Part shown: piece after piece, positions 1 through 9,891 of the stretch
Layout: each line of letters begins with the position of its first letter
How positions within the stretch are numbered: the first letter of the stretch is position 1
Source: a virus
Taxonomy: Duplodnaviria > Heunggongvirae > Uroviricota > Caudoviricetes
Strand: one strand, 5' to 3'
DNA length: 9,891 nt
Virus record (IMG/VR): IMGVR_UViG_2627853730_000001
Span: 1-9,891 of that record
The notes under the pieces: generated by a model
The model's database searches: none
What the model was told of the DNA's origin: nothing
What the model saw: the letters and a program-made list of their open reading frames with translations, nothing else
Program-made: the position numbers and the translations under genes

Positions 1-1
1 G

Positions 2-235
2 CTGGAGATCACGCTCGGTCAGTTAACGGTTGAGTTCGAAACTGATGGGTGGTTTGCTCTGACGGGTGCCGGTTGCGAAGCGCGGCTGGATGATAATGCC
101 GTCTGGACCGGCTGGCGATTGCCGATGAAAGCAGGCCAGCGTTTAACGCTTAAACGCCCGCAGCACGGGATGCGCAGTTATCTGGTGGTCGCGGGTGGTA
201 TTGATGTTCCGCCGGTAATGGGGTCATGCATGTAA
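2..235 (+). pseudogene. pxpC: Interrupted host gene fragment, PxpC/YbgK-like (5-oxoprolinase subunit C / allophanate hydrolase subunit 2 family). It has no start in the window and its frame ends at a stop inside the prophage end.
   Basis: The + strand frame beginning at nt 2 is open to TAA 233-235 and translates LEITLGQLTVEFETDGWFALTGAGCEARLDDNAVWTGWRLPMKAGQRLTLKRPQHGMRSYLVVAGGIDVPPVMGSCM*. The ...SYLxVAGGIDV... region matches my recollection of the enterobacterial PxpC/YbgK mid-protein region, so the expected downstream part is missing. The following sequence is AT-rich with phage-end repeats. Identification is from memory, not a search. Confidence 0.5.
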
Positions 236-236
236 C

Positions 237-406
237 CAGGTGAATCATTTGATACCGACAAGGGTTTTAGTGAAAGGAGGTGAAATCACCTGTAAGATGC
301 TGAAATAAAACAGGTGATGTATACTTCGGACGGAAAACTCTTTTTGATACCGACTGCTCAACAAATAGTCAAAAGATCAAAAAACGGCGACACATTTGAT
401 ACTGCT
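237..406 (+). repeat. attL-like sub-terminal repeat array, presumed transposase end-binding sites (L1-L3 analogues).
   Basis: Three direct copies of the core TTTGATAC(C/T)G: CATTTGATACCGAC at 246-259, TTTTTGATACCGACTGCT at 343-360, CATTTGATACTGCT at 393-406. Three CAGGTGA motifs: 237-243, 311-317 and, inverted, inside the AGGTGA-AA-TCACCT inverted repeat at 278-291. The first copy resembles the MuA site consensus TGNTTCAYTNNAARYRCGAAAR only loosely. Confidence 0.6.
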
Positions 407-586
407 AATTTACCCTTAAAATCTTCTTCAAAACATCTTCAAACTGCCAAAATGCTCACATAATCGATCTAACTATAATCAGTATGATAATCATCATGAA
501 TTACTATTCAATAGCGTGATTATCTTGGGATGAGTCATATGATCTCTATATGTATTTACAGCACCACCTCATGATAGCGATGGCGC

Positions 587-1198
587 TTAACCAACAACAT
601 TTTTCTTTACTGTCACTGCCCCTGATTCCTGGGTGGCGTTATTGCTCGAGTTGTACTTCTCAATAACGCGCAAAATCTCTTTGTCTGTTTCTTCACTTCC
701 CGCCATTCCTATCTTTATTGCATTTTTTAGTACGGGACGTAATGGCAAGGCATCAATGATGCTTTCTACCGCATCCTGGCTGATTGTAGATGTATTCATT
801 GCTGCCAGCCTGACAAGGTTGTTAGTACCTTCTCGCCTGATGAATGTAAGGATTAATTGCTTCTCTTGGGGGCTTAGAGAGCTAAGCGCCTGATCAATAC
901 CCGAACCTGAATCGCAATTTTTTCCGATTTTTCCGCATTCATCTTCGTTCTTGCCTGTGGCCAACCAGTCGAGTGAACAATTACAGGCTTTAGCTATTAA
1001 GGCCAGTTTATCCAAAGGAGGGAAGTTTTTCCCCTTCCTGTAATTTCTTACTGTGGCTTCAGATAGTCCACAAAGGGTCGCCAGTTCGACGTTTGTCATG
1101 TTTCCCATAGCCATAGCTAAGCGTTCTGAAAATCGGTTTATTCCTTCCATATCAATAAACCGTTCCGCACTGGATACGGTTTTTTCTGCCTTATCCAT
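587..1198 (-). CDS. Prophage lysogeny repressor (functional analogue of Mu c) with an XRE/lambda-cI-type helix-turn-helix; 203 aa.
   Basis: Leftward ORF divergent from ner across the operator, in the position of Mu c. Residues ~34-80 (MTNVELATLCGLSEATVRNYRKGKNFPPLDKLALIAKACNCSLDWLATG) fit the HTH_XRE pattern. GGGGG Shine-Dalgarno lies upstream of ATG (complement of 1196-1198). I see no obvious S24 peptidase motif in the C-terminal part. Confidence 0.75.
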   Translation of the reverse strand: MDKAEKTVSSAERFIDMEGINRFSERLAMAMGNMTNVELATLCGLSEATVRNYRKGKNFPPLDKLALIAKACNCSLDWLATGKNEDECGKIGKNCDSGSGIDQALSSLSPQEKQLILTFIRREGTNNLVRLAAMNTSTISQDAVESIIDALPLRPVLKNAIKIGMAGSEETDKEILRVIEKYNSSNNATQESGAVTVKKNVVG

Positions 1199-1354
1199 AT
1201 AACCCCCTATAAAACAAAGAAATTATCGACATCGCATTTAATTTCGATATGCTCGCAAAAAACCGTTGATATCGAATTATTTTGCGATTATGATTTACCT
1301 AAATCGATAACCGGTTTTGATTATCGGTTCAGGTAAACATGAGAGGATCACACA
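1199..1354. promoter_or_regulatory. Operator and divergent promoter region between repressor and ner; by position also the likely transposition enhancer (internal activation sequence).
   Basis: A 156-bp AT-rich intergenic region holds at least six copies of a (T)ATCGA/TATCG core (tatcgac, atcgca, ttcgatat, gatatcgaa, atcgataa, ttatcgg), including the palindrome GATATC and the inverted pair ATCGATAACCGG/CCGGTTTTGATTATCGG. It sits about 1 kb from the left end, as Mu O1-O3 do. Confidence 0.6.
1266..1294 (+). promoter_or_regulatory. Candidate early promoter (Pe analogue) driving ner-A-B and downstream genes.
   Basis: -35 TTGATA (1266-1271), 17-bp spacer, -10 TATGAT (1289-1294); both hexamers are 5/6 matches to the sigma70 consensus. 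The -35 overlaps the GATATC operator repeat. ner ATG is at 1355 with GAGAGGA Shine-Dalgarno at 1341-1347. Confidence 0.5.
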
Positions 1355-1621
1355 ATGAGGGTATCCAGACAAGCATCGAATAATTTGTTTGTTCGAGAGG
1401 GGTGTGACTGGTCTGCTAAAGCGGTATATGCAGCCCTTGAAAACAAAGGCACAGACCTCCCTGAACTGGAAAGGGAGTTAGGATTAAAAAGCGGATCAAT
1501 GCGCAATGTGTTTTACCGCCAGTGCCGTAAATACGAAGCCGCCATCGCCGAAAAAATAGGGGTTGAACCTGCTGTAATCTGGCCCAGCAGATACCAGGTG
1601 GACGCCAGAGAAGTGGCTTGA
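1355..1621 (+). CDS. ner: Ner-like DNA-binding protein (Mu Ner / Nlp-Sfs7 family), negative regulator of early transcription; 88 aa.
   Basis: Translation contains DWSAKAVYAAL and the C-terminal AVIWPSRYQ, matching the Mu Ner / E. coli Nlp signature (DWHxADIIAGL ... EVIWPSRYQ). First rightward gene after the operator, with a good Shine-Dalgarno. Confidence 0.85.
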   Translation: MRVSRQASNNLFVREGCDWSAKAVYAALENKGTDLPELERELGLKSGSMRNVFYRQCRKYEAAIAEKIGVEPAVIWPSRYQVDAREVA

Positions 1622-1631
1622 TGGGGGATGT

Positions 1632-3722
1632 ATGTGGGTAACAGCAAAAGAATGTGTTGGTCTTCCTGATTTACCAATGATGGAACATAACATTCGCCAT
1701 CGACTCACAAAAGCAGCTGCGGGAAATGCAGCCATGTTACGCAAACGTAAGGGGACAAAAGCAATCGAATTTAATATCGATTGTTTGCCTTCTGGCGCGC
1801 AACAAGTATTGCGTGAACGTTATGCCCTTCAACTGATGACGCAAAAAGCTGATGAATCACCGGCTCCGGTGGTGACAAAGGCCAGACGCTCATCTGCCGT
1901 GGTTGATGCGGTGGAGGCATATCGCGGATCACCACAACTGATGCTCGAACGCCTCAATGCCCTGACTGAAAACCAGCGCCAGGTGGCTGATGCACGAATC
2001 GCGATCGTCAGCGAAGTTCTGAAAGTCGCGCAACAACCTGGTTTCAGCTGTGCGAAGGCTATCCGGTTTATCGTTGACAACCTGGCACGTTCGCAACTGG
2101 ACGAGCGCATTGTGGCAATGGTTGAGACGGCGAACGCCAAAAAGGGAAACAGCCGTGCGTTGAGTGAAATCACGCTGAAACGCTGGATTGCGGCCTTTAA
2201 CAAGGCACAGAACGCCGCTGAACGCCTGCTTTTACTGGCACCGGGTAAACGCCAGGAAATAAAAGCCGAAGATATTAACTGGCTGCCCGAATTTCTGGCG
2301 CAGTATCGCCAGTCAAACGGCCGACCAATGACCGAGGCTTACGAGGATTTTGTTGCTGAATGGCAGCACCGGCACGCTGATGAGCCTTATATGCTCGATA
2401 TCATGCCCTCTTATGACACCATTCGCCGCGCAATGAAGAAACTGCCGGAAGTGGTGAAACAAAAAGGCCGGGTAACTGGCAGTGAATACCGTCAGCTTGA
2501 GGGATTCACGCGCCGCGACTGGTCCAGAATGCCGGTGAATTATGTCTGGATTGGTGACGGTCACGGCATGAAGCTGAAATGCGCGCACCCGGTTCACGGG
2601 CGGCCATTCGCACCGGAAGTGACCTTTGTTATCGACGGTGGCACGCGCTTTGTGGTGGGCTGGAGCCTTGACCTGGCTGAAAATGTTTTCGCCGTAGCCG
2701 GTGCCATACAGCACGGTATTCGCCATCATGGCAAACCGTTTCTGTATTACTCGGATAATGGCTCCGGGGAAACCGCCGACGTCCTGGATAAGGAGATTGT
2801 GGGGATACTGCCACGACTGGGGATTAATCACCCGACAGGGATTGCCGGTAATCCGCAGGGACGGGGCATTATCGAACGGCTTAACCGCACATTACCGATG
2901 CGCATAGCCCGTAAATACCGCACCTATTTCGGGAAAGGAGCAGATCGCGAGACGTTACGTAAAACCAACCGCGATTTACGCTCGGCATTCAGTGCCCTGC
3001 AACAGGGCAAACGGCTGAACGCCCGGCAGCAGTCAGCGATGCGTGATTTACCGTCCTGGTCTGAACTGATTGATGCCATTCGTGACGGTGTTGAGTGGTA
3101 CAACAACCGGCCGCACGATGAATTACCCATGAAGCCGAACGGTAAACATTACAGCCCGGCGGAGTTCAGAAAAAAACGCCTGGCGGAAGAGGACACGGAA
3201 ATTGAATGGCTGTCCGATGTTGAACTGCGGGATATGTTCCGGCCGATGGTGGAGCGCCCTGTAAGACGCTGTGAAATACGCTGGCTGAATAATATTTACT
3301 ACGCGCCCGAGCTGCGTGACGAGCATGGCCGTAAGGTACTTATCAGCTATGACATTCATGATGCCGAACGAATTACCGTGCGCCGCCCGGATGGCAGCGT
3401 GATTTGCGAGGCGGTATGGGACGGCAATAAACGCGAAGCCTTCCCTGTCAGCGCGGAATACTACAAACAGCAGCAGCGCCTTAAAGGCATGCGTAAACGC
3501 GCAGAGGAAAAAATCCGTGATGCCGAGGATGAGGTTGTCAACGTGCTGGAGCACAAGCCGCAGGAGCCCTGGCTGGAAAACATATACCGCCCTGTGGGTA
3601 ATACGGTGACCGTTCAGCAACCGGTCGCTGACGATGAACCTGATGAAGAATACGAGCGTAATTTCCAGCGGGGATTGCAACTGCTCGAAGCGAAATTAAA
3701 AGAAAGTGATCCGCTGGCCTGA
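1632..3722 (+). CDS. A: Mu-type DDE transposase A (MuA-like), 696 aa.
   Basis: N-terminus MWVTAKECVGLPDLP resembles MuA MELWVSPKECANLPGLP (enhancer/operator-binding domain). DDE catalytic triad contexts are present: WIGDGHGMK, YYSDNGSGE, GRGIIERLNRT. Size and position (immediately after ner) fit. GGGGG Shine-Dalgarno lies 4 nt upstream of ATG 1632. Confidence 0.9.
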   Translation: MWVTAKECVGLPDLPMMEHNIRHRLTKAAAGNAAMLRKRKGTKAIEFNIDCLPSGAQQVLRERYALQLMTQKADESPAPVVTKARRSSAVVDAVEAYRGSPQLMLERLNALTENQRQVADARIAIVSEVLKVAQQPGFSCAKAIRFIVDNLARSQLDERIVAMVETANAKKGNSRALSEITLKRWIAAFNKAQNAAERLLLLAPGKRQEIKAEDINWLPEFLAQYRQSNGRPMTEAYEDFVAEWQHRHADEPYMLDIMPSYDTIRRAMKKLPEVVKQKGRVTGSEYRQLEGFTRRDWSRMPVNYVWIGDGHGMKLKCAHPVHGRPFAPEVTFVIDGGTRFVVGWSLDLAENVFAVAGAIQHGIRHHGKPFLYYSDNGSGETADVLDKEIVGILPRLGINHPTGIAGNPQGRGIIERLNRTLPMRIARKYRTYFGKGADRETLRKTNRDLRSAFSALQQGKRLNARQQSAMRDLPSWSELIDAIRDGVEWYNNRPHDELPMKPNGKHYSPAEFRKKRLAEEDTEIEWLSDVELRDMFRPMVERPVRRCEIRWLNNIYYAPELRDEHGRKVLISYDIHDAERITVRRPDGSVICEAVWDGNKREAFPVSAEYYKQQQRLKGMRKRAEEKIRDAEDEVVNVLEHKPQEPWLENIYRPVGNTVTVQQPVADDEPDEEYERNFQRGLQLLEAKLKESDPLA

Positions 3723-3804
3723 AATAAAAAAATAACCCGAGGGGTGACTCAGGTTATTTGAGGTTTCAGTCTCGGAGAATGCTGTCTCAAGCGAGGTGAA
3801 TAAT

Positions 3805-4737
3805 ATGACCGATATTAACGATGTAATCAAGACCATTGATGAACTTATTGATGGCGGCGTACTGACGCAGTATGCCATCGCCAGAGAGGCGGGAATTTCC
3901 GACGGCACATTATCGGCTTTCCGTAAGGGAAAATATAAAGGCGATAACGCTGCTGTGGCTGCTTCCCTGCGCTCCTGGTATGAGAACTGGAATAAACAAA
4001 GCGCACTGCCGGAACCGCCGCAGTTTGTGGAAACTCAGACAGTCCAGGAGCTGCGCGCACTGTTTCAGGCGGTTCGCCTGATGGGCTGTATTAACGTTAT
4101 TGTGGGCGTACCGGGTGTGGGTAAAACGGCCACTGCCCGTAATTACTGCCAGGAGCAACCAAACACCTGGATGATCACCCTGTCACCCGCGCACTCCAGC
4201 GTCACGGAGTGTCTGCTGGAGCTGGCCGATGCGCTGGGGATTGATTACACCCGCGCGAACAAAGGGGCATTATCCCGCGCCATCCGCCGTCGCCTGACGG
4301 GAACGCGTGGACTGGTGATTGTGGATGAGGCGGATCATCTTGGTATTGACGGTCTGGAGCAACTCCGGGCAATTCAGGACGCCACGGGGATCGGGATGGT
4401 GCTTATTGGTAACCCGCGCGGATTGTTTAAAGGTGGACGCCGCGCCTTTGATGATTTATCGCGCCTGTTCAGCCGTCTTGCCCGTACAAAACAACTTCGC
4501 AAGGCCAAAAAGGCGGATGTGCTGGCCATTGCCAGGGCATGGGGTATCAGTGGTGAGGCCGAGCTGGCCGTCATGCAGGCTATCGCTGAAAAGCCGGGAG
4601 CATTACGTGTTCTGACACATACGCTTAACCAGGCGTGGCTCACCGCCAGCGGTGAAGGCGCGGCGCTGACAGAAAAACATATTAATGCGGCCTTTAAAGA
4701 GGTTTATACCAACCCTGAATTACTCTCACAGGTGTGA
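3805..4737 (+). CDS. B: Mu B-like AAA+ ATPase, target-DNA activator of transposition; about 310 aa. Alternative GTG start at 3796.
   Basis: Walker A GVPGVGKT and Walker B LVIVDEADHL are present. N-terminal region ...GISDGTLSAFRKGKYKGDNAAV... parallels MuB ...FINDKYNGDNERV.... Length is close to MuB (312 aa). ATG 3805 is preceded by GAGGTG (3793-3798) at 6-nt spacing. Confidence 0.85.
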   Translation: MTDINDVIKTIDELIDGGVLTQYAIAREAGISDGTLSAFRKGKYKGDNAAVAASLRSWYENWNKQSALPEPPQFVETQTVQELRALFQAVRLMGCINVIVGVPGVGKTATARNYCQEQPNTWMITLSPAHSSVTECLLELADALGIDYTRANKGALSRAIRRRLTGTRGLVIVDEADHLGIDGLEQLRAIQDATGIGMVLIGNPRGLFKGGRRAFDDLSRLFSRLARTKQLRKAKKADVLAIARAWGISGEAELAVMQAIAEKPGALRVLTHTLNQAWLTASGEGAALTEKHINAAFKEVYTNPELLSQV

Positions 4738-4739
4738 TT

Positions 4740-4961
4740 ATGGCGGTATTTAATATTCCTGATATTTACGGACGCTTTTACCTGGTTAATTTCGATAACG
4801 TGAAGGTGATTTCACTGGCCGAAAATAAAGCATGTGGCGATTTACTTTTTGAATTTAATGACCGCACACGAATGGTGATATCTGCCGGACTTGATCGCGA
4901 AGGTGCGACAGAAGTTTACAGCGGAATATGCCGTTCTGTTGGTGCGAAACAAGTCAGCTAA
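4740..4961 (+). CDS. Small early protein, 73 aa, in the position occupied by kil in Mu (positional analogy only).
   Basis: ORF starts 3 nt after the B stop with AGGTG 6 nt upstream of ATG 4740 (the six-frame track gives a GTG at 4734). Size matches my recollection of Mu Kil (~74 aa), but I recognise no sequence similarity. Confidence 0.5.
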   Translation: MAVFNIPDIYGRFYLVNFDNVKVISLAENKACGDLLFEFNDRTRMVISAGLDREGATEVYSGICRSVGAKQVS

Positions 4962-5228
4962 ATGAGGTGTTATATGAATATGCAATCCTGCGGTAACAAA
5001 ATGAATTTATTCGACTCCCTGAACAGCGCGCGCCGTCTGACCGAACTTGCCGGTGCGGTACTGGAACGCAGTAAGCGCTATCCGCAACGTTTTGCACTGA
5101 AAACCACGCCGCCGGTAGGCAACGTGCAGGGAACCGGTGAAATTGAAATCACCATACAGACCAACGGCCTGCGCCGCCGTGTGAAGGCCACCCGCATCAG
5201 CGGCTGCACGGTTTACTGGGAGGTGTGA
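4962..5228 (+). CDS. Hypothetical small early protein, 84-88 aa; start ambiguous between ATG 4962, 4974 and 4980.
   Basis: Open frame abuts the stop of the previous gene (TAA 4959-4961, ATG 4962). GAGGTG at 4965-4970 would best serve ATG 4980. Tightly packed in a co-directional operon. Confidence 0.5.
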   Translation: MRCYMNMQSCGNKMNLFDSLNSARRLTELAGAVLERSKRYPQRFALKTTPPVGNVQGTGEIEITIQTNGLRRRVKATRISGCTVYWEV

Positions 5229-5229
5229 G

Positions 5230-5511
5230 GTGAAAAAAAATCTCATTGCATGGGCGTGGTCGAGTGGTCTTATTGAGTTTGGTTACGTCCTGCCGGAAGG
5301 TGCATTGCCGATAGTTGCCGGAAAGCCCGCCACGGTACGGCATGTGATTGATGTTGTGGCGCGTCATGGACGCGATGAACAGGAACAGCTACTGGTTCCT
5401 GGAATACCGGAAGCGGTGACGGAAGAAGAAGCCTTTAATGCCATGGTTCAGTTCTGCCGTGAGGTCAGACGCCGGGTCAGTTATCCAAACAGAACGAGGG
5501 CCAGAGGATGA
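5230..5511 (+). CDS. Hypothetical early protein, 93 aa.
   Basis: GTG 5230 is preceded by GGGAGG (5218-5223) at 6-nt spacing and lies 1 nt after the upstream stop. The 3' end overlaps the next start in an ATGA junction (5508-5511). Confidence 0.55.
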   Translation: MKKNLIAWAWSSGLIEFGYVLPEGALPIVAGKPATVRHVIDVVARHGRDEQEQLLVPGIPEAVTEEEAFNAMVQFCREVRRRVSYPNRTRARG

Positions 5512-5780
5512 GTAAAGTCGTGCGCATTATTTTCGAATACAAGGAGGACGTTATCCGTAAAAACGCTGATGGAACAGTGCACATGGGGGTAAGTCTGGAT
5601 ATACGTTCAACCGGAATAAAGCAGAAAAATGATAGCCCCGCCATGATTTTTGGGGTGGTTATGCTGGCAGAAAGCAGAAACTTCGCAGAGCTTGTGGCAA
5701 TGAAAGCCAGTGCATTCATGAAAGACAGGGGCATGGCTTCCGGGGTTATTAACGGTAATGAATTTAATCAGCAGGGGTAA
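5508..5780 (+). CDS. Hypothetical early protein, 90 aa; paralogue 1 of a tandem pair.
   Basis: ATGA overlap with the upstream gene. N-terminus MSKVVRIIFEY is shared with the next gene, and the first ~35 nt are near-identical to the start of 5786-6078. Confidence 0.6.
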   Translation: MSKVVRIIFEYKEDVIRKNADGTVHMGVSLDIRSTGIKQKNDSPAMIFGVVMLAESRNFAELVAMKASAFMKDRGMASGVINGNEFNQQG

Positions 5781-5785
5781 TTCCA

Positions 5786-6078
5786 TGAGCAAAGTACGCG
5801 TTATTTTTGAATTTGAGCATGTTTCGCATGACGAAAAACCGGCAGGCAATGACAGTGTTGAAGTGCATGAAAAGATTGGTGTGGATGTAAAAACAGAACG
5901 TGATACGGATAACAGGCCGACGTCACTCTGTGACGTTTATGCAAGTATTCTCCAGTATCACAGTCCTGAAATTATTCAGTTTCTCTCAGCGGAATTTCAG
6001 GCATCTGTACAGGCTTTTGGGGCGGATGCCATCATTAAACGCCACCGCGTGCATAAAGCATCAGGCACACTGCAATAA
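5786..6078 (+). CDS. Hypothetical early protein, 97 aa; paralogue 2 of a tandem pair.
   Basis: I prefer ATG 5786 (CAGGGG Shine-Dalgarno at 5773-5777) over the track's 5758 start because it gives N-terminus MSKVRVIFEF, parallel to the upstream paralogue. A C-terminal segment (QFLSAEFQASVQAFG) weakly resembles ELVAMKASAFMKDRG in paralogue 1. Confidence 0.6.
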
Positions 6079-6089
6079 GGAAAAACAAA

Positions 6090-6620
6090 ATGGCTAAACG
6101 CGTTACAAAATTAAAGGCCGCAGCCGAGGCAGCACCGCAGACCCGTGAAGAGGTCAGCCGCGATATCCGACGCTTTGGGGATATGCAGCGTGAGGCACTA
6201 CGCCTGGAAACGGCGATGAATGACGAAGTGGCAGAAATCACCGCCCGTTATACGCCGCAGATTGAAAACCTTAAAAAAGAAATCAAAGTGCTTTTTAAGG
6301 GGATTCATGACTGGTGTAAAACCAACCGCAATGAGCTGACGAACGGCGGCGAAACCAAAACAGCCAATCTGACCACCGGAACGGTGTCATGGCGGCTGGG
6401 AACGCCATCATGCAGCGTCAGCCGTGATGTGGAAGGCGTGATTGAAATGCTGCGCCGTATGGGCCTTGAGCGCTTCATCCGCACGAAAGAGGAAGTGAAT
6501 AAGCAAGCTGTCCTGGCGGAGCCAGATGCGGTGAAGGGCATTGCCGGTATAAAGGTGAATAAAGGCGCTGAAAGTTTTTATGTCGAGCCTTTTGAACAGG
6601 ACGCCGGACTGAATAAATAA
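6090..6620 (+). CDS. gam: Gam-like host-nuclease inhibitor (Mu Gam family, Ku-like DNA-end-binding protein), 176 aa.
   Basis: Translation matches my recollection of Mu Gam along its length: GDMQREALRLETAMNDEVAEIT, ELTNGGETKTANLTTGTVSWR, ERFIRTKEEVNKQAVLAEP. Size and position in the early region fit. Confidence 0.8.
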   Translation: MAKRVTKLKAAAEAAPQTREEVSRDIRRFGDMQREALRLETAMNDEVAEITARYTPQIENLKKEIKVLFKGIHDWCKTNRNELTNGGETKTANLTTGTVSWRLGTPSCSVSRDVEGVIEMLRRMGLERFIRTKEEVNKQAVLAEPDAVKGIAGIKVNKGAESFYVEPFEQDAGLNK

Positions 6621-6717
6621 CACCGCATTAAATCTTTAAATATCACATCGTGTTAATTATGGCGCTCGCGTCAGGGGACTGCCTGCGCCTGTAAACTGAA
6701 AATAAGGAACAGGAAAT

Positions 6718-7260
6718 ATGGCATATTTTTATTTCAAATTAGACATAGTGTACACAAATAAATATTTAACCGAATATCAGCGGGATGTTTTACCGCTACG
6801 CAACAGTATTCTTCGGGCATTACTGAAAAATACAGGCGCTGCCGGATTGCGCTTAAAGCCGTTCGCCATGGACGTAATCAGTGAGTTTTATTTTTCTGGT
6901 TCTCTGCCTGCGGGCTGGCGTAAGCGCGATGATGTGGCTTTTATCGGGGACGGACCGTGCTTTATTGCCAGACCTGATGAGTCATGCCCTGAAGGTCCGG
7001 CGATTGCCGCAATGATTGAAACCGCTGAACGTGAGTTAAGAAAGCGTCCTGATTTCCTTGTCTGGCTCTGTGAAAAGCTGGGGGTAATGAGAATCCCCTC
7101 CATGTTTAACACGGACTCCTGGTGGACCCCGTCGCTCTCCCGTGATGCCCTGTGCGTGGTGTTTAAAGTAGGCGCTTATGGCAGGGAAATAAAAGGGGGT
7201 ATTCCTGAAGAATGCCAGGAAATTAAACATTCTGAATATGTGGCGCTGACGGAGGAATAA
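6718..7260 (+). CDS. Hypothetical protein, 180 aa, no family recognised; first gene after the only sizeable intergenic gap of the early region.
   Basis: Strong AGGAACAGGA Shine-Dalgarno before ATG 6718. The 5' ~80 nt are AT-rich. The frame is open for 180 codons with no competing ORF. Confidence 0.65.
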   Translation: MAYFYFKLDIVYTNKYLTEYQRDVLPLRNSILRALLKNTGAAGLRLKPFAMDVISEFYFSGSLPAGWRKRDDVAFIGDGPCFIARPDESCPEGPAIAAMIETAERELRKRPDFLVWLCEKLGVMRIPSMFNTDSWWTPSLSRDALCVVFKVGAYGREIKGGIPEECQEIKHSEYVALTEE

Positions 7261-7263
7261 TTC

Positions 7264-7797
7264 ATGATTGATGCAAAAGTGCTTGAAGGGGTTAAAAGCT
7301 GGCTGCGTTTTTCTGGCCGTCTGACCAGTCGTTCTCTGGCAGAAAAAATGAATATGCCGCTATCCTCCATGGTTTATTTTCTGCGTGATGCGGTCGATGC
7401 CGGGGTGCTGACGGACCGTAACGGTTTTTATGATATTCCGCGTCCCCGCCCGGTGCAGGCGGTTCGTCGCAAATGCAGCCAGGAAGGTGCGGCTGATGAT
7501 GTTCAGTGGTGCAGCTTCAGAAAATCCCTGCCGTGGATTGAGGGGCATGATATTCCGTCGATGGCGTGGGAATTTGCTCAGGGAGTACTGACCTGCGAAA
7601 CCGTTTATGTGGTGGCTGAAGTTGATGAGCAGGCCATGAAAGAAGGCGTGCCCCAGTTTGTGATGGCGTATATCGACATTCGCCTGGGCGTCATTATCTG
7701 CGGCTTAAGCGGCTGGAACATCACCGGGCGCGTTCTGCGTTACCTGATTATTGACCGGACAGCGGCATCGGCAGGGATATCTGCGGAGGTGGCGTAA
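7264..7797 (+). CDS. Hypothetical protein, 177 aa, with a possible N-terminal winged-helix/HTH-like segment.
   Basis: GGAGGA Shine-Dalgarno at 7251-7256, 7 nt before ATG 7264. N-terminal RLTSRSLAEKMNMPLSSMVYFLRDAVDAGVL looks like a DNA-binding helix-turn-helix/wing, but this is a by-eye judgement. The stop overlaps the next start (TAATG at 7795-7799). Confidence 0.6.
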   Translation: MIDAKVLEGVKSWLRFSGRLTSRSLAEKMNMPLSSMVYFLRDAVDAGVLTDRNGFYDIPRPRPVQAVRRKCSQEGAADDVQWCSFRKSLPWIEGHDIPSMAWEFAQGVLTCETVYVVAEVDEQAMKEGVPQFVMAYIDIRLGVIICGLSGWNITGRVLRYLIIDRTAASAGISAEVA

Positions 7798-8312
7798 TGT
7801 TCTTTAAAACATCAAACCCTTCCGCGCTGGCTGCGTGGCAAAAATACCAGCAGGACTGCCAGAAAGTTAAGGATGAGGCAAAACGCCTTGAGGCCGTGCT
7901 GAATGTTGCGTGCCGGTCGGTATTTGTATCCGGTATCAGTGGATTTTGCTTTAAGGGACTGCGTTTTACGGAGGACAAATATCCTTTTCATCGCGACTTA
8001 TGGCGAAAACCGACTGCGTCGAATGGCTGGAGCTGCACACCGCGCACATCACGTATCCCTAAAACCCTGCGTGTTGCCTCTGATGAACTGAACAGTCTGT
8101 GGCGTGAATATTCGCCCGTCACGTATGCCAGAACCGATGCGCTGTTGTTCTGGCTGGGTATTGATTTCTCGGCAATCCTGTTTGGCCCTGTGAAGTGGTT
8201 CTGCGTTGACGATGTGATTTACCTTCAGTGCGGCGTAAAACCCGCAAAACAGAAAATGACCGAAATACTGTCTGATGAGTTTTATGCTGCTGAAAAGCGA
8301 GTCAGGGGGTGA
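7797..8312 (+). CDS. Hypothetical protein, 171 aa, no family recognised.
   Basis: Translationally coupled to the upstream gene (TAATG overlap) with GGAGGTGG upstream. Long open frame in the operon direction. Confidence 0.6.
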   Translation: MFFKTSNPSALAAWQKYQQDCQKVKDEAKRLEAVLNVACRSVFVSGISGFCFKGLRFTEDKYPFHRDLWRKPTASNGWSCTPRTSRIPKTLRVASDELNSLWREYSPVTYARTDALLFWLGIDFSAILFGPVKWFCVDDVIYLQCGVKPAKQKMTEILSDEFYAAEKRVRG

Positions 8313-8315
8313 TGC

Positions 8316-8867
8316 ATGATGAAATTACAACCCATGGGACTAAAAGGTCGCGCCCCCGCTCATGTCCGTCCGTGGACACCTGAAGAAGATGCGCTGCTGA
8401 TTGCGCTTTATTCATCCACCCCGGTTAAGGATATTGCTGCCAGAATAAAAAGAACTGTCTGGGCTGTATATAACCGGACTGGTGTATTGCGCAGTTCATA
8501 CCCGGAGTTACTGAAATATAAACACCCAAGATTTACACCTGATGAAGATAAGTTTATTCGAAAAAATGCCAGAACAATGACCTGCCAGCAAATGGGAGAA
8601 TATCTCGGACGTAATAAAGATTCTGTCAGATGTCGGGCAGGAATGATTGGTGCTGGATTAACAAAGTGCGGAGAGTTACGCCCCGGCACGCGCATATCTG
8701 ATGATGATGTACGTCTTATACGTGCGCTGCGTGATTCCGATTACCCACGCCGTCTGTCATTCCGGGAAATTGGCGAAAAGTTTGGAATATCTGAACATTC
8801 TGCTCACGCAGTTTATTACCGTCGCCGGACTGCCGAGGACGCTGTATTACGGGAGTTAACGCCATGA
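8316..8867 (+). CDS. Putative DNA-binding protein with three internal Myb/SANT-like or HTH-like repeats, 183 aa.
   Basis: Three ~45-aa segments begin WTPEEDALLIALY..., FTPDEDKFIRKNA..., ISDDDVRLIRALR...; the third ends in an HTH-like RRLSFREIGEKFGISEHSAHAVYYRR. AGGGGGTG Shine-Dalgarno precedes ATG 8316. ATGA overlap with the next gene at 8864-8867. Confidence 0.6.
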   Translation: MMKLQPMGLKGRAPAHVRPWTPEEDALLIALYSSTPVKDIAARIKRTVWAVYNRTGVLRSSYPELLKYKHPRFTPDEDKFIRKNARTMTCQQMGEYLGRNKDSVRCRAGMIGAGLTKCGELRPGTRISDDDVRLIRALRDSDYPRRLSFREIGEKFGISEHSAHAVYYRRRTAEDAVLRELTP

Positions 8868-9196
8868 TAACGACCTTATTTGTTGAATCAGATGAACCTC
8901 TTGTGTGTGCCGCCGGAATGCCGCTCTGTGGCGGAACGCTGACCGGCGTTTATTTCGGGGATTTGCGCGGTTATCCCTGGCATTCACTGGATGACGCATT
9001 TCCGCCTGATATGGAGGCTGTCGTGCTGATTGTTCAGTATGGTGACCAACAGGAACTGCGCATCGGCCATATGGGGTATGAAGGCTTTTTTATTGATGAA
9101 GAAACCGGAGCCTGCCTTGAAGATGAGGACGGACAGGTGACGCACTGGTGCCATCTTTCGGCCTTGCCGGAATTACAGGGGATACATAATGGATGA
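8864..9196 (+). CDS. DUF551-like phage protein, 110 aa.
   Basis: The C-terminal two thirds (PWHSLDDAFPPDMEAVVLIVQYG...GYEGFFIDEETG...VTHWCHLSALPE) fit the DUF551 pattern as I recall it (W-S-D-LP ... VL ... THW-LP-PE). GGGAG Shine-Dalgarno and ATGA coupling at the start. Confidence 0.55.
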   Translation: MITTLFVESDEPLVCAAGMPLCGGTLTGVYFGDLRGYPWHSLDDAFPPDMEAVVLIVQYGDQQELRIGHMGYEGFFIDEETGACLEDEDGQVTHWCHLSALPELQGIHNG

Positions 9197-9332
9197 GCAA
9201 ATTGTTGAATGTCCCACCTGTGGAAATGAGGACCCGGAGTATCTGAAAGAGTGCCCACATTGTGGTGAGATAAAATGTAACCACTGCGATATGGGCGACG
9301 ACACTGCATGTATAAATTGTGAGGATGAATAA
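9189..9332 (+). CDS. Small zinc-ribbon protein, 47 aa, with four CxxC motifs; not in the six-frame track because it is under 60 aa.
   Basis: ATG 9189 overlaps the upstream stop (ATGGATGA) with AGGGG 8 nt upstream. Translation MDEQIVECPTCGNEDPEYLKECPHCGEIKCNHCDMGDDTACINCEDE contains CPTC, CPHC, CNHC, CINC. It fills the gap between flanking genes, and its stop (9330-9332) is followed 1 nt later by the next start. Confidence 0.55.
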   Translation: MDEQIVECPTCGNEDPEYLKECPHCGEIKCNHCDMGDDTACINCEDE

Positions 9333-9333
9333 T

Positions 9334-9621
9334 ATGGAAAAAGAAATCAAATTTGCGCCTAAATCTATCGACGAAGAACTGGCTAAAATCGGCATGCTTG
9401 AACGTATGCGGGACATTATCGAATATGCGATAAAAGAAAATCTTGCAGCCAGAGAAGCCCTTTTGATAATGGAGCGGGAGATTAACCTGATTAAGGATGC
9501 TGTATCTCTGGATAATAAAATAGCCCGCGAGGAATACGTTCGCCGCAGGCTCGGTGTTGATGGTTCAGCAATTCTTACATCTGAACATTATGCAAAAATT
9601 TTTAATCTTTTTCAGCGGTAA
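9334..9621 (+). CDS. Hypothetical charged, probably helical protein, 95 aa, in an AT-rich segment.
   Basis: ATG 9334 is preceded by GAGGA (9321-9325) at 8-nt spacing; the track's longer ORF starts at GTG 9319. Sequence is rich in E/K/R/I/L. Nucleotide composition is visibly more AT-rich than the upstream operon. Confidence 0.5.
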   Translation: MEKEIKFAPKSIDEELAKIGMLERMRDIIEYAIKENLAAREALLIMEREINLIKDAVSLDNKIAREEYVRRRLGVDGSAILTSEHYAKIFNLFQR

Positions 9622-9841
9622 TCCCCATACAGGCCCGGAGATTGTCGAAATGCCAGTCGGTATTAATATATGAGCCATCCTGGATATCTTCTGTATTTTC
9701 CGGGGTAGAGTTTTTTTGAGCGAGATTGATAATATGTATTGCCTCCTCACGGGAAATCAGCCCCTTATCGAACAGGGTTACCATAAGATTTCCAGCCATT
9801 GTGAATGCGGCAACATCAAGTGCATTTTTTATATCTGACAT
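9602..9841 (-). CDS. Hypothetical protein, 79 aa, on the minus strand, convergent with and overlapping the 3' end of the 9334-9621 gene by 20 nt.
   Basis: Minus-strand ATG (complement of 9839-9841) is preceded by AAAGGAAAAA as a ribosome-binding site. It is the only substantial minus-strand ORF in the rightward early region that is not a shadow of a stronger plus-strand gene. AT-rich composition. Confidence 0.45.
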   Translation of the reverse strand: MSDIKNALDVAAFTMAGNLMVTLFDKGLISREEAIHIINLAQKNSTPENTEDIQDGSYINTDWHFDNLRACMGITAEKD

Positions 9842-9854
9842 AGATTTTTCCTTT

Positions 9855-9889
9855 TATGTTAATTGACATGGCGGTGCGGTAACACCGCC
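9855..9889. promoter_or_regulatory. Palindromic elements upstream of the minus-strand gene: near-palindrome ATGTTAATTGACAT and hairpin GGCGGTG-CGGTAA-CACCGCC; candidate operator or promoter region.
   Basis: Perfect 7-bp inverted repeat with a 6-nt loop at 9870-9889 and a near-palindrome at 9855-9868. They lie immediately 5' of the minus-strand start. There is no U-tract on either strand, so not a typical intrinsic terminator. The window ends at 9891, so context is incomplete. Confidence 0.3.
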
Positions 9890-9891
9890 CA

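Follow-up and report, generated by a model that had tools for sequence, protein, structure and literature searches.

Genes A and B in the early region of a Mu-like Escherichia coli prophage: probable old paralogues in a family of small phage proteins

This report concerns two neighbouring small early genes, here called A and B, of a Mu-like prophage of Escherichia coli O157; the whole stretch that was analysed (hereafter, the window) comprises 9,891 nucleotides, positions 1 to 9,891 of the IMG/VR virus record IMGVR_UViG_2627853730_000001. We are confident that the two genes are anciently diverged paralogues related over their full length, a relationship suggested by sequence comparisons through intermediate genes in which each link is significant. 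The products are members of an uncharacterised family of small (78-98 amino acids) cytoplasmic proteins of Mu-like transposable phages of Enterobacterales. The explanation that we favour as a whole, in which A and B would be old paralogues in a family resembling the gene 7 product (gp7) of phage D108 and their products non-enzymatic binders of host proteins, seems to us somewhat probable.

The first-pass annotation of this DNA described A and B as a tandem pair of diverged paralogues with a conserved 5' end. The common start is confirmed: MSKVVRIIFEY of A aligns with MSKV-RVIFEF of B, where 8 of the 10 aligned residues agree and the N-terminal segment scores z = 5.5 in a shuffle test; a B-type protein starting MSKIVRVIFEF (P0047) is found as well. 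The description of the first nucleotides of the two genes as “nearly identical” proved to be overstated, since, once a 3-base gap is allowed, the match amounts to only 24 of 30 aligned bases. Of the eight codons for residues identical between the two N-termini, three differ synonymously; for this reason we place the conservation at the protein level. The pair is absent from the output of an ungapped repeat finder, which lists 20 other chance repeats in the window (14-29 nucleotides, 72-93% identity). The likeness of the starts is thus one of protein and position, both segments lying at the start codon, with no near-identical DNA repeat. The statement that the rest has “diverged to weak similarity” holds for the pairwise comparison (BLASTP, 22% identity over 74 amino acids, expectation value (E) = 0.009), and hhalign with clean subfamily alignments gives 94% for A and B including the N-terminal strand, over columns 1-34 only. 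The proteins differ in charge: A is slightly basic (isoelectric point, pI, about 9; net charge about +2) and B mildly acidic (pI 5.8; about -4); most family members are mildly acidic (pI about 5-6), and A is the exception.

The relation over the whole length emerges through intermediates. About 160 loci of Mu-like phages were fetched around gam or around family members, and roughly 11,900 open reading frames (ORFs) in them were searched; no stretch proved conserved enough for a family-wide locus search, but searches by subfamily did yield loci. A phmmer search with the single A sequence matches the MVK-type gene of locus L122 (E=5e-6, residues 10-64 of A, beyond the strand common to A and B). 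Started from A without residues 1-12, jackhmmer reaches the MVK type, then the MSN type (4e-13 when first seen), and then B and the D108-gp7 and MAQ (Edwardsiella) types; the search converges, with B finally at 3e-24. Started from B without residues 1-11, it reaches the MSN, D108-gp7, MVK and MAQ types, and A at 0.028, colinear. The comparison of subfamily profiles by hhalign gives 99.3% for B and MSN, 97.5% for B and D108 gp7, 97.9% for MVK and MSN, and 63% for A and MVK.

An alignment of 17 sequences is colinear over the full length; conserved in it are the N-terminal strand and the strand that follows, a G-P-x-D turn (missing in A) and a long amphipathic helix with a glycine behind it. Conservation in the family is highest in the N-terminal strand (M-S/A-K-V-x-V-I-F-E-F), which is why A and B look alike only at their starts. 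In its central region A keeps the STG...P-A-x-x-F-G pattern common to the MVK and MSN types, which is lost in B.

AlphaFold models of A and B were built on one joint family alignment of 33 sequences. The model of A has strands at residues 6-18 and 24-35, a helix at 44-73 and a strand at 80-82 (predicted local distance difference test, pLDDT, 75); that of B has strands at 4-21 and 24-39, a helix at 48-77 and short C-terminal strands (pLDDT 84). In the order of their elements the two models agree, a beta-hairpin followed by a long helix, and the predicted family fold is a long beta-hairpin, a helix of roughly 30 residues and a short strand at the C-terminus. Even the closest structures, among them small alpha/beta domains and a designed dimer, resemble it only weakly, and there is no match for the family in BFVD. 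Because the strand-deleted searches link A to B and the predicted topology is the same, the similarity does not stop at the translation start, nor are the predicted folds unrelated; the paralogue claim of the first-pass annotation is upheld in this respect.

Several points weigh against this conclusion. Beyond residue 12 or so nothing is detectable between A and B in a pairwise comparison (shuffle z 0.4 without the N-terminal strand), and hhalign of the two without the strand gives a probability of 0.4%; full-length homology therefore rests on the transitive links. In the jackhmmer search from A, the B gene of the window reached only 0.0026 in the last round run before the profile took up B sequences. 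The likeness of the AlphaFold topologies is not independent evidence, as both models share one joint alignment, and the confidence of the A model (pLDDT 75) is only moderate. Finally, a neighbour-joining tree groups A with MVK and B with MSN with bootstrap values below 50%.

As to the history of the pair, the two-copy state is confined, among the lineages sampled, to this E. coli prophage lineage: every other one (Mu, D108-like, MVK, MSN, Edwardsiella and locus L045) has one family gene or none. Within the lineage of the window the A-B tandem is the rule; the region 5200-6120 was found in 232 of 5426 complete E. coli genomes, 216 of which contain 80% of it or more. The sister phage L147 has the order MuB, an 80-amino-acid gene, Kil, an MSN-type gene and gam; therefore, B is the counterpart, by position and sequence, of the single gene, and “w3 plus A” (w3 being the gene preceding A) is an extra block. 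B is the conservative copy and A the divergent upstream copy. A separate observation is that a w3 homologue in L045 sits on the opposite side of the family gene.

The first-pass annotation presumed tandem duplication followed by rapid divergence, a pattern that it linked to phage genes which may engage host factors. Taken as a recent in-situ duplication in this lineage with very fast, asymmetric divergence and with A freed from constraint, this proposal is in our opinion unlikely, although it survives better than the other alternatives. It would agree with the adjacency of A and B on the same strand, their similar length and the restriction of two copies to this lineage; with the ratio of nonsynonymous to synonymous substitution rates (dN/dS) of both genes, three to four times that of the neighbours; with A being the charge outlier of the family; and with the N-terminal strand of A, which is closer to that of B than to that of MVK (MSKVVRIIFEY, MSKVRVIFEF and MVKVEFIFTS, respectively). 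However, in an all-against-all comparison the best outside partner of A is the MVK single-copy gene (26 bits), followed by MSN, and the best partners of B are the MSN single-copy genes (31-41 bits), B being outside the top five of A; a recent duplication is disfavoured because of these partners. Likewise, the STG...P-A-x-x-F-G pattern ties A to MVK and MSN and not to B, the DNA 5' of the two ATGs is unrelated, and both genes are under purifying selection within the lineage, with no sign of a burst. Each gene is thus nearer to single-copy genes elsewhere than to the other, and duplication with rapid divergence is not supported as it was put in the annotation. The comparisons argue that the split of A and B predates this prophage lineage, or that the pair was assembled by recombination; the B-like N-terminal strand of A favours some exchange of 5' ends between the copies.

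Recombination at the 5' ends is in fact observed. Among the B alleles, two cassettes (B1 and B2) have been exchanged that are about 25% diverged at the DNA level from codon 11 to the stop, with nearly identical flanks; the synonymous rate (dS) is 0.013 in codons 2-11 of B, compared with 0.2-0.77 in the remaining gene. In E. coli CP022279.1 (locus L148) an A-type start (ATGAGTAAAATCGT, overlapping the w3 stop) is fused after codon 5 to the body of B. In locus L029 upstream DNA of the A type leads into a B-type gene, with the junction at the ATG or before it, and there is a separate internal deletion in w3; E. coli CI5 likewise lacks A and, compared at the level of architecture, matches L029. 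The common 5' ends behave as short direct repeats, and through them A has been lost in two lineages whose junctions differ; the difference between the junctions points to more than one unequal recombination between the 5' segments, rather than an ancestral single-copy state. E. coli STEC1585 carries a w3 deletion with both A and B intact.

Two side observations belong here. An internal w3 deletion of 210 bases (window 5232-5441) recurs with or without gene A, in L029, CI5, STEC1585 and JNEC-KY203. There is also a natural in-frame A/B fusion in E. coli (P0036, 67 amino acids), in which window 5508-5654 is joined to 6019-6078; it consists of residues 1-49 of A and the last 18 of B, which meet in a TTTTGGGG microhomology common to both genes and do not keep the register of the family alignment. 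This fusion is a deletion product rather than one of homologous exchange.

Such exchanges raise the question of whether A and B could be unrelated genes that share only a 5' module acquired by gene conversion or recombination. The L148 hybrid demonstrates that exchange occurs, and the first 30 bases of B are almost invariant across alleles that are otherwise 25% diverged. Nevertheless, we consider this very improbable: searches from which the module was removed still tie A to the family containing B, the synonymous differences between the two starts speak against recent conversion in the window, and the predicted topology of A and B is the same. Still less credible is chance or a common constraint of translation initiation: starts of the MSK... 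kind, AAA-rich in the second and third codons, occur often in well-expressed genes, many chance repeats in the window match at least as well at the DNA level, and other small early ORFs of Mu-like phages start M-[AS]-(V)-K-[VF]-x-[VI] without profile support, but the shuffle score of the N-terminal peptide, the retention of the same strand with different codons in all subfamilies and, above all, the extension of homology past the start in the strand-deleted searches refute it.

Both genes evolve under purifying selection, faster than their neighbours. Within the lineage, dN/dS is 0.30 for A (17 alleles) and 0.39 for B (20 alleles), compared with 0.10 for MuB and gam, 0.11 for kil, 0.12 for w3 and 0.19 for the first small gene after MuB; that is, three to four times the values of MuB, gam and kil. 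The ratio peaks, at 0.8-1.6, in the loop that connects strand 2 to the helix and in the C-terminal tail, where the values are noisy because they come from only 8-19 codons each; the most constrained parts are the helix and, in A, the N-terminal strand. Considering these ratios together with the Shine-Dalgarno-like motifs before the two starts, both genes look functional.

The family slot is in the early operon between kil and gam, in all loci surveyed, the window included. By sequence, the family appears to unite phrog_2230 and phrog_4107, which are kept apart by PHROGs, with D108 gene 7, whose product is 96.6% identical to the MAK (MAKVIFEF) type of phrog_2230. An exhaustive HMMER search with the B profile among 1.84 billion representatives returned only 11 proteins, including the MSN subfamily; a profile search of a set of 5.8 billion proteins returned 96, from E. 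coli, Salmonella, Yersinia, Cronobacter and Edwardsiella, all labelled “hypothetical protein”. A word-indexed protein search with A and B gave E. coli sequences only, with at least 64% identity. A tblastn search of 50,697 phage records with A and B gave only two records of Shiga toxin (Stx) phages with an inserted Mu-like element, and no match in Mu or D108. For A and B there is no match in Pfam at E<=0.1 or in PADLOC at E<=1, and the sole match in NCBIfam has 12.7 bits compared with a cut-off of 40; no relative of the family is present among the PDB sequences.

Database entries for A and B include many with a frameshift or truncation (e.g., P0049-P0055, P0060 and P0061), running into the +1 frame of B (…QRNFRHL…); the cause is probably an error of assembly or sequencing at homopolymer runs, or else the entries are pseudogenes. 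Locus L122 (5163-5858; IMG/VR UViG_2558860441_000014) has three more small ORFs directly 3' of the family gene, starting MSVKVVIEF, MAVKFIVNV and MAVKFEVII, with a hairpin-then-helix pattern by eye. They were rejected as family members, since with the hidden Markov model of the family none does better than E=25; an array of very remote paralogues is one possible reading, a convergent N-terminal strand the other.

What the proteins do can be proposed only tentatively. Since the family has no invariant polar or catalytic residue, no enzyme-like fold match and conservation confined to the hydrophobic core, we infer a non-enzymatic binder; the variable segments are the loop from hairpin to helix and the C-terminal tail. 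The genomic context is an early operon among Kil and Gam, with variable copy number and cassette exchange, and both Kil and Gam act on host proteins or DNA ends. It is possible, although we would not call it probable, that A and B are non-enzymatic, probably dimeric proteins that modulate a host factor early in lytic growth and differ in specificity. According to this proposal, they would be made early in lytic growth, would bind, probably as dimers, a host protein and modulate it (for host takeover or counter-defence), and would have diverged to different targets or specificities. The proposal is weakened by the lack of a family homologue of known function, and we found nothing in the literature on Mu gp7/E6, D108 gene 7, phrog_2230/phrog_4107 or the RefSeq accessions.

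It is tempting to go further and propose that A and B form a heterodimer derived from an ancestral homodimer, in which the almost identical N-terminal strands would be the common interface and the opposite charges would be co-adapted. The fast-evolving hairpin loop and C-terminal tail, which pass between phages as cassettes, would then determine the specificity of an early factor for counter-defence or host takeover, evolving in an arms race with E. coli. This is speculative and, we believe, improbable.

The coordinates of the features discussed here are collected in Table 1.

Table 1. Features of the window around genes A and B (positions are those of the window)
Feature	Position	Strand	Remarks
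Repressor	587-1198	minus	then ner
Transposase A	1632-3722
MuB	3796-4737
First small gene	4740-4961		phrog_3375
Kil homologue	4974-5228 (RefSeq start)	+	phrog_2679 E=6e-46; left border of the variable block
w3	5230-5511	+	93 amino acids; phrog_1518 (PHROGs label “host nuclease inhibitor”); precedes gene A
Shine-Dalgarno-like motif GAGGG	5496-5500	+	upstream of the gene A start
ATGA	5508-5511	+	gene A start overlapping the w3 stop
Gene A	5508-5780	+	90 amino acids; ORF and RefSeq coding sequence; phrog_4107 E=4.5e-56
5' segment of A (MSKVVRIIFEY)	5508-5540	+	upstream arm of the imperfect direct repeat; hybrid junctions in L148 and L029
Shine-Dalgarno-like motif AGGGG, last codons of A, to the B ATG	5773-5787	+	read from the sequence
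Gene B	5785-6078	+	97 amino acids; ORF and RefSeq coding sequence; phrog_2230 E=2.7e-40
5' segment of B (MSKVRVIFEF)	5785-5814	+	downstream arm; left breakpoint of the B1/B2 cassette
gam (host-nuclease inhibitor)	6090-6620	+	PF07352 E=7e-40; 55% identical to Mu Gam; conserved right border
gp11-like gene	after gam

The five small genes between MuB and gam are tightly packed, as had been noted (Table 1). The remark that none of the five is recognisable does not stand, since the second is a Kil homologue: its product is 33% identical to Mu Kil (BLASTP E=8e-5), besides its match to phrog_2679. This gene was searched from a start at 4977, one codon past the annotated 4974, and the matches are unaffected. 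The start of gene B, previously placed at 5786, is corrected to 5785, as the frame from 5786 contains stop codons. The GAGGG motif and the ATGA overlap at the start of A form an arrangement like that seen in translational coupling, to judge from the letters; before B, AGGGG lies 7 bases 5' of the ATG, and the TAA stop of A (5778-5780) is followed by a 4-base spacer. A scan of the window gave no Rfam match, hence no known RNA element at the common 5' ends.

Some prophages of the lineage have an extra gene of 139 amino acids between the first small gene and kil (L148 1588-2007 and L163 856-1275); it is a homologue of Mu gp8/E7 (33% identity over 76 amino acids, E=5e-7), with no copy in the window between 4961 and 4974. 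Elsewhere in the window, a 47-amino-acid ORF at 9189-9332, which overlaps the adjoining ORFs by a few bases, has two CxxC pairs (CPTCG...CPHCG) and more cysteines, and resembles a small zinc ribbon.

Small genes of unknown role abound in the early “semi-essential” region of Mu-like phages, and A and B are representative examples. In temperate phages, accessory genes that stand in tandem and have diverged are normal, as is the mosaic exchange of cassettes. The result is a modest advance in annotation that will not surprise a specialist: A and B are phage accessory genes of a kind that is catalogued, though uncharacterised. What is gained is a family definition under which two PHROGs and D108 gene 7 come together, along with a fold prediction, a map showing which segments are constrained and which variable, and naturally occurring variants with one or two copies; the family thereby becomes easier to study experimentally. 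The prophage lineage itself is common in Shiga-toxin-producing E. coli and is present in about 4% of complete E. coli genomes.

Comparison with known systems can be made at two levels. The first is that of small early host-takeover proteins of transposable phages, for example Kil of Mu and, in Mu-like phages of Pseudomonas, Tip of D3112 and Aqs1 of DMS3. Such proteins are small and non-essential, are encoded in the early operon after the transposition genes, vary between relatives and bind a host protein. We know of no relation in sequence or fold between them and A or B, and the analogy is one of genomic niche only.

The second level is that of position and sequence. The Mu gp7 protein (E6, 87 amino acids, phrog_10252) resembles D108 gene 7 in position and has a similar length, and starts MAKVIIEIKN; however, that it is a very distant relative of the family is doubtful, as its match to phrog_2230 is marginal (E=0.009; 0.02-0.04 by jackhmmer; hhalign probability from 0.2% to 43%), and A and B have no match to phrog_10252 at E<=10. 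The closer counterpart is D108 gp7 (89 amino acids, “hypothetical protein”), which is similar to A and B in its slot after kil and before gam, its size, its N-terminal strand and its predicted hairpin and helix. Its hhalign probability with B is high, as given above, yet the identity is only about 25% to B and about 10% to A. The gene is present in D108 as a single copy, and D108 and Mu have two more genes between this slot and gam, whereas B abuts gam.
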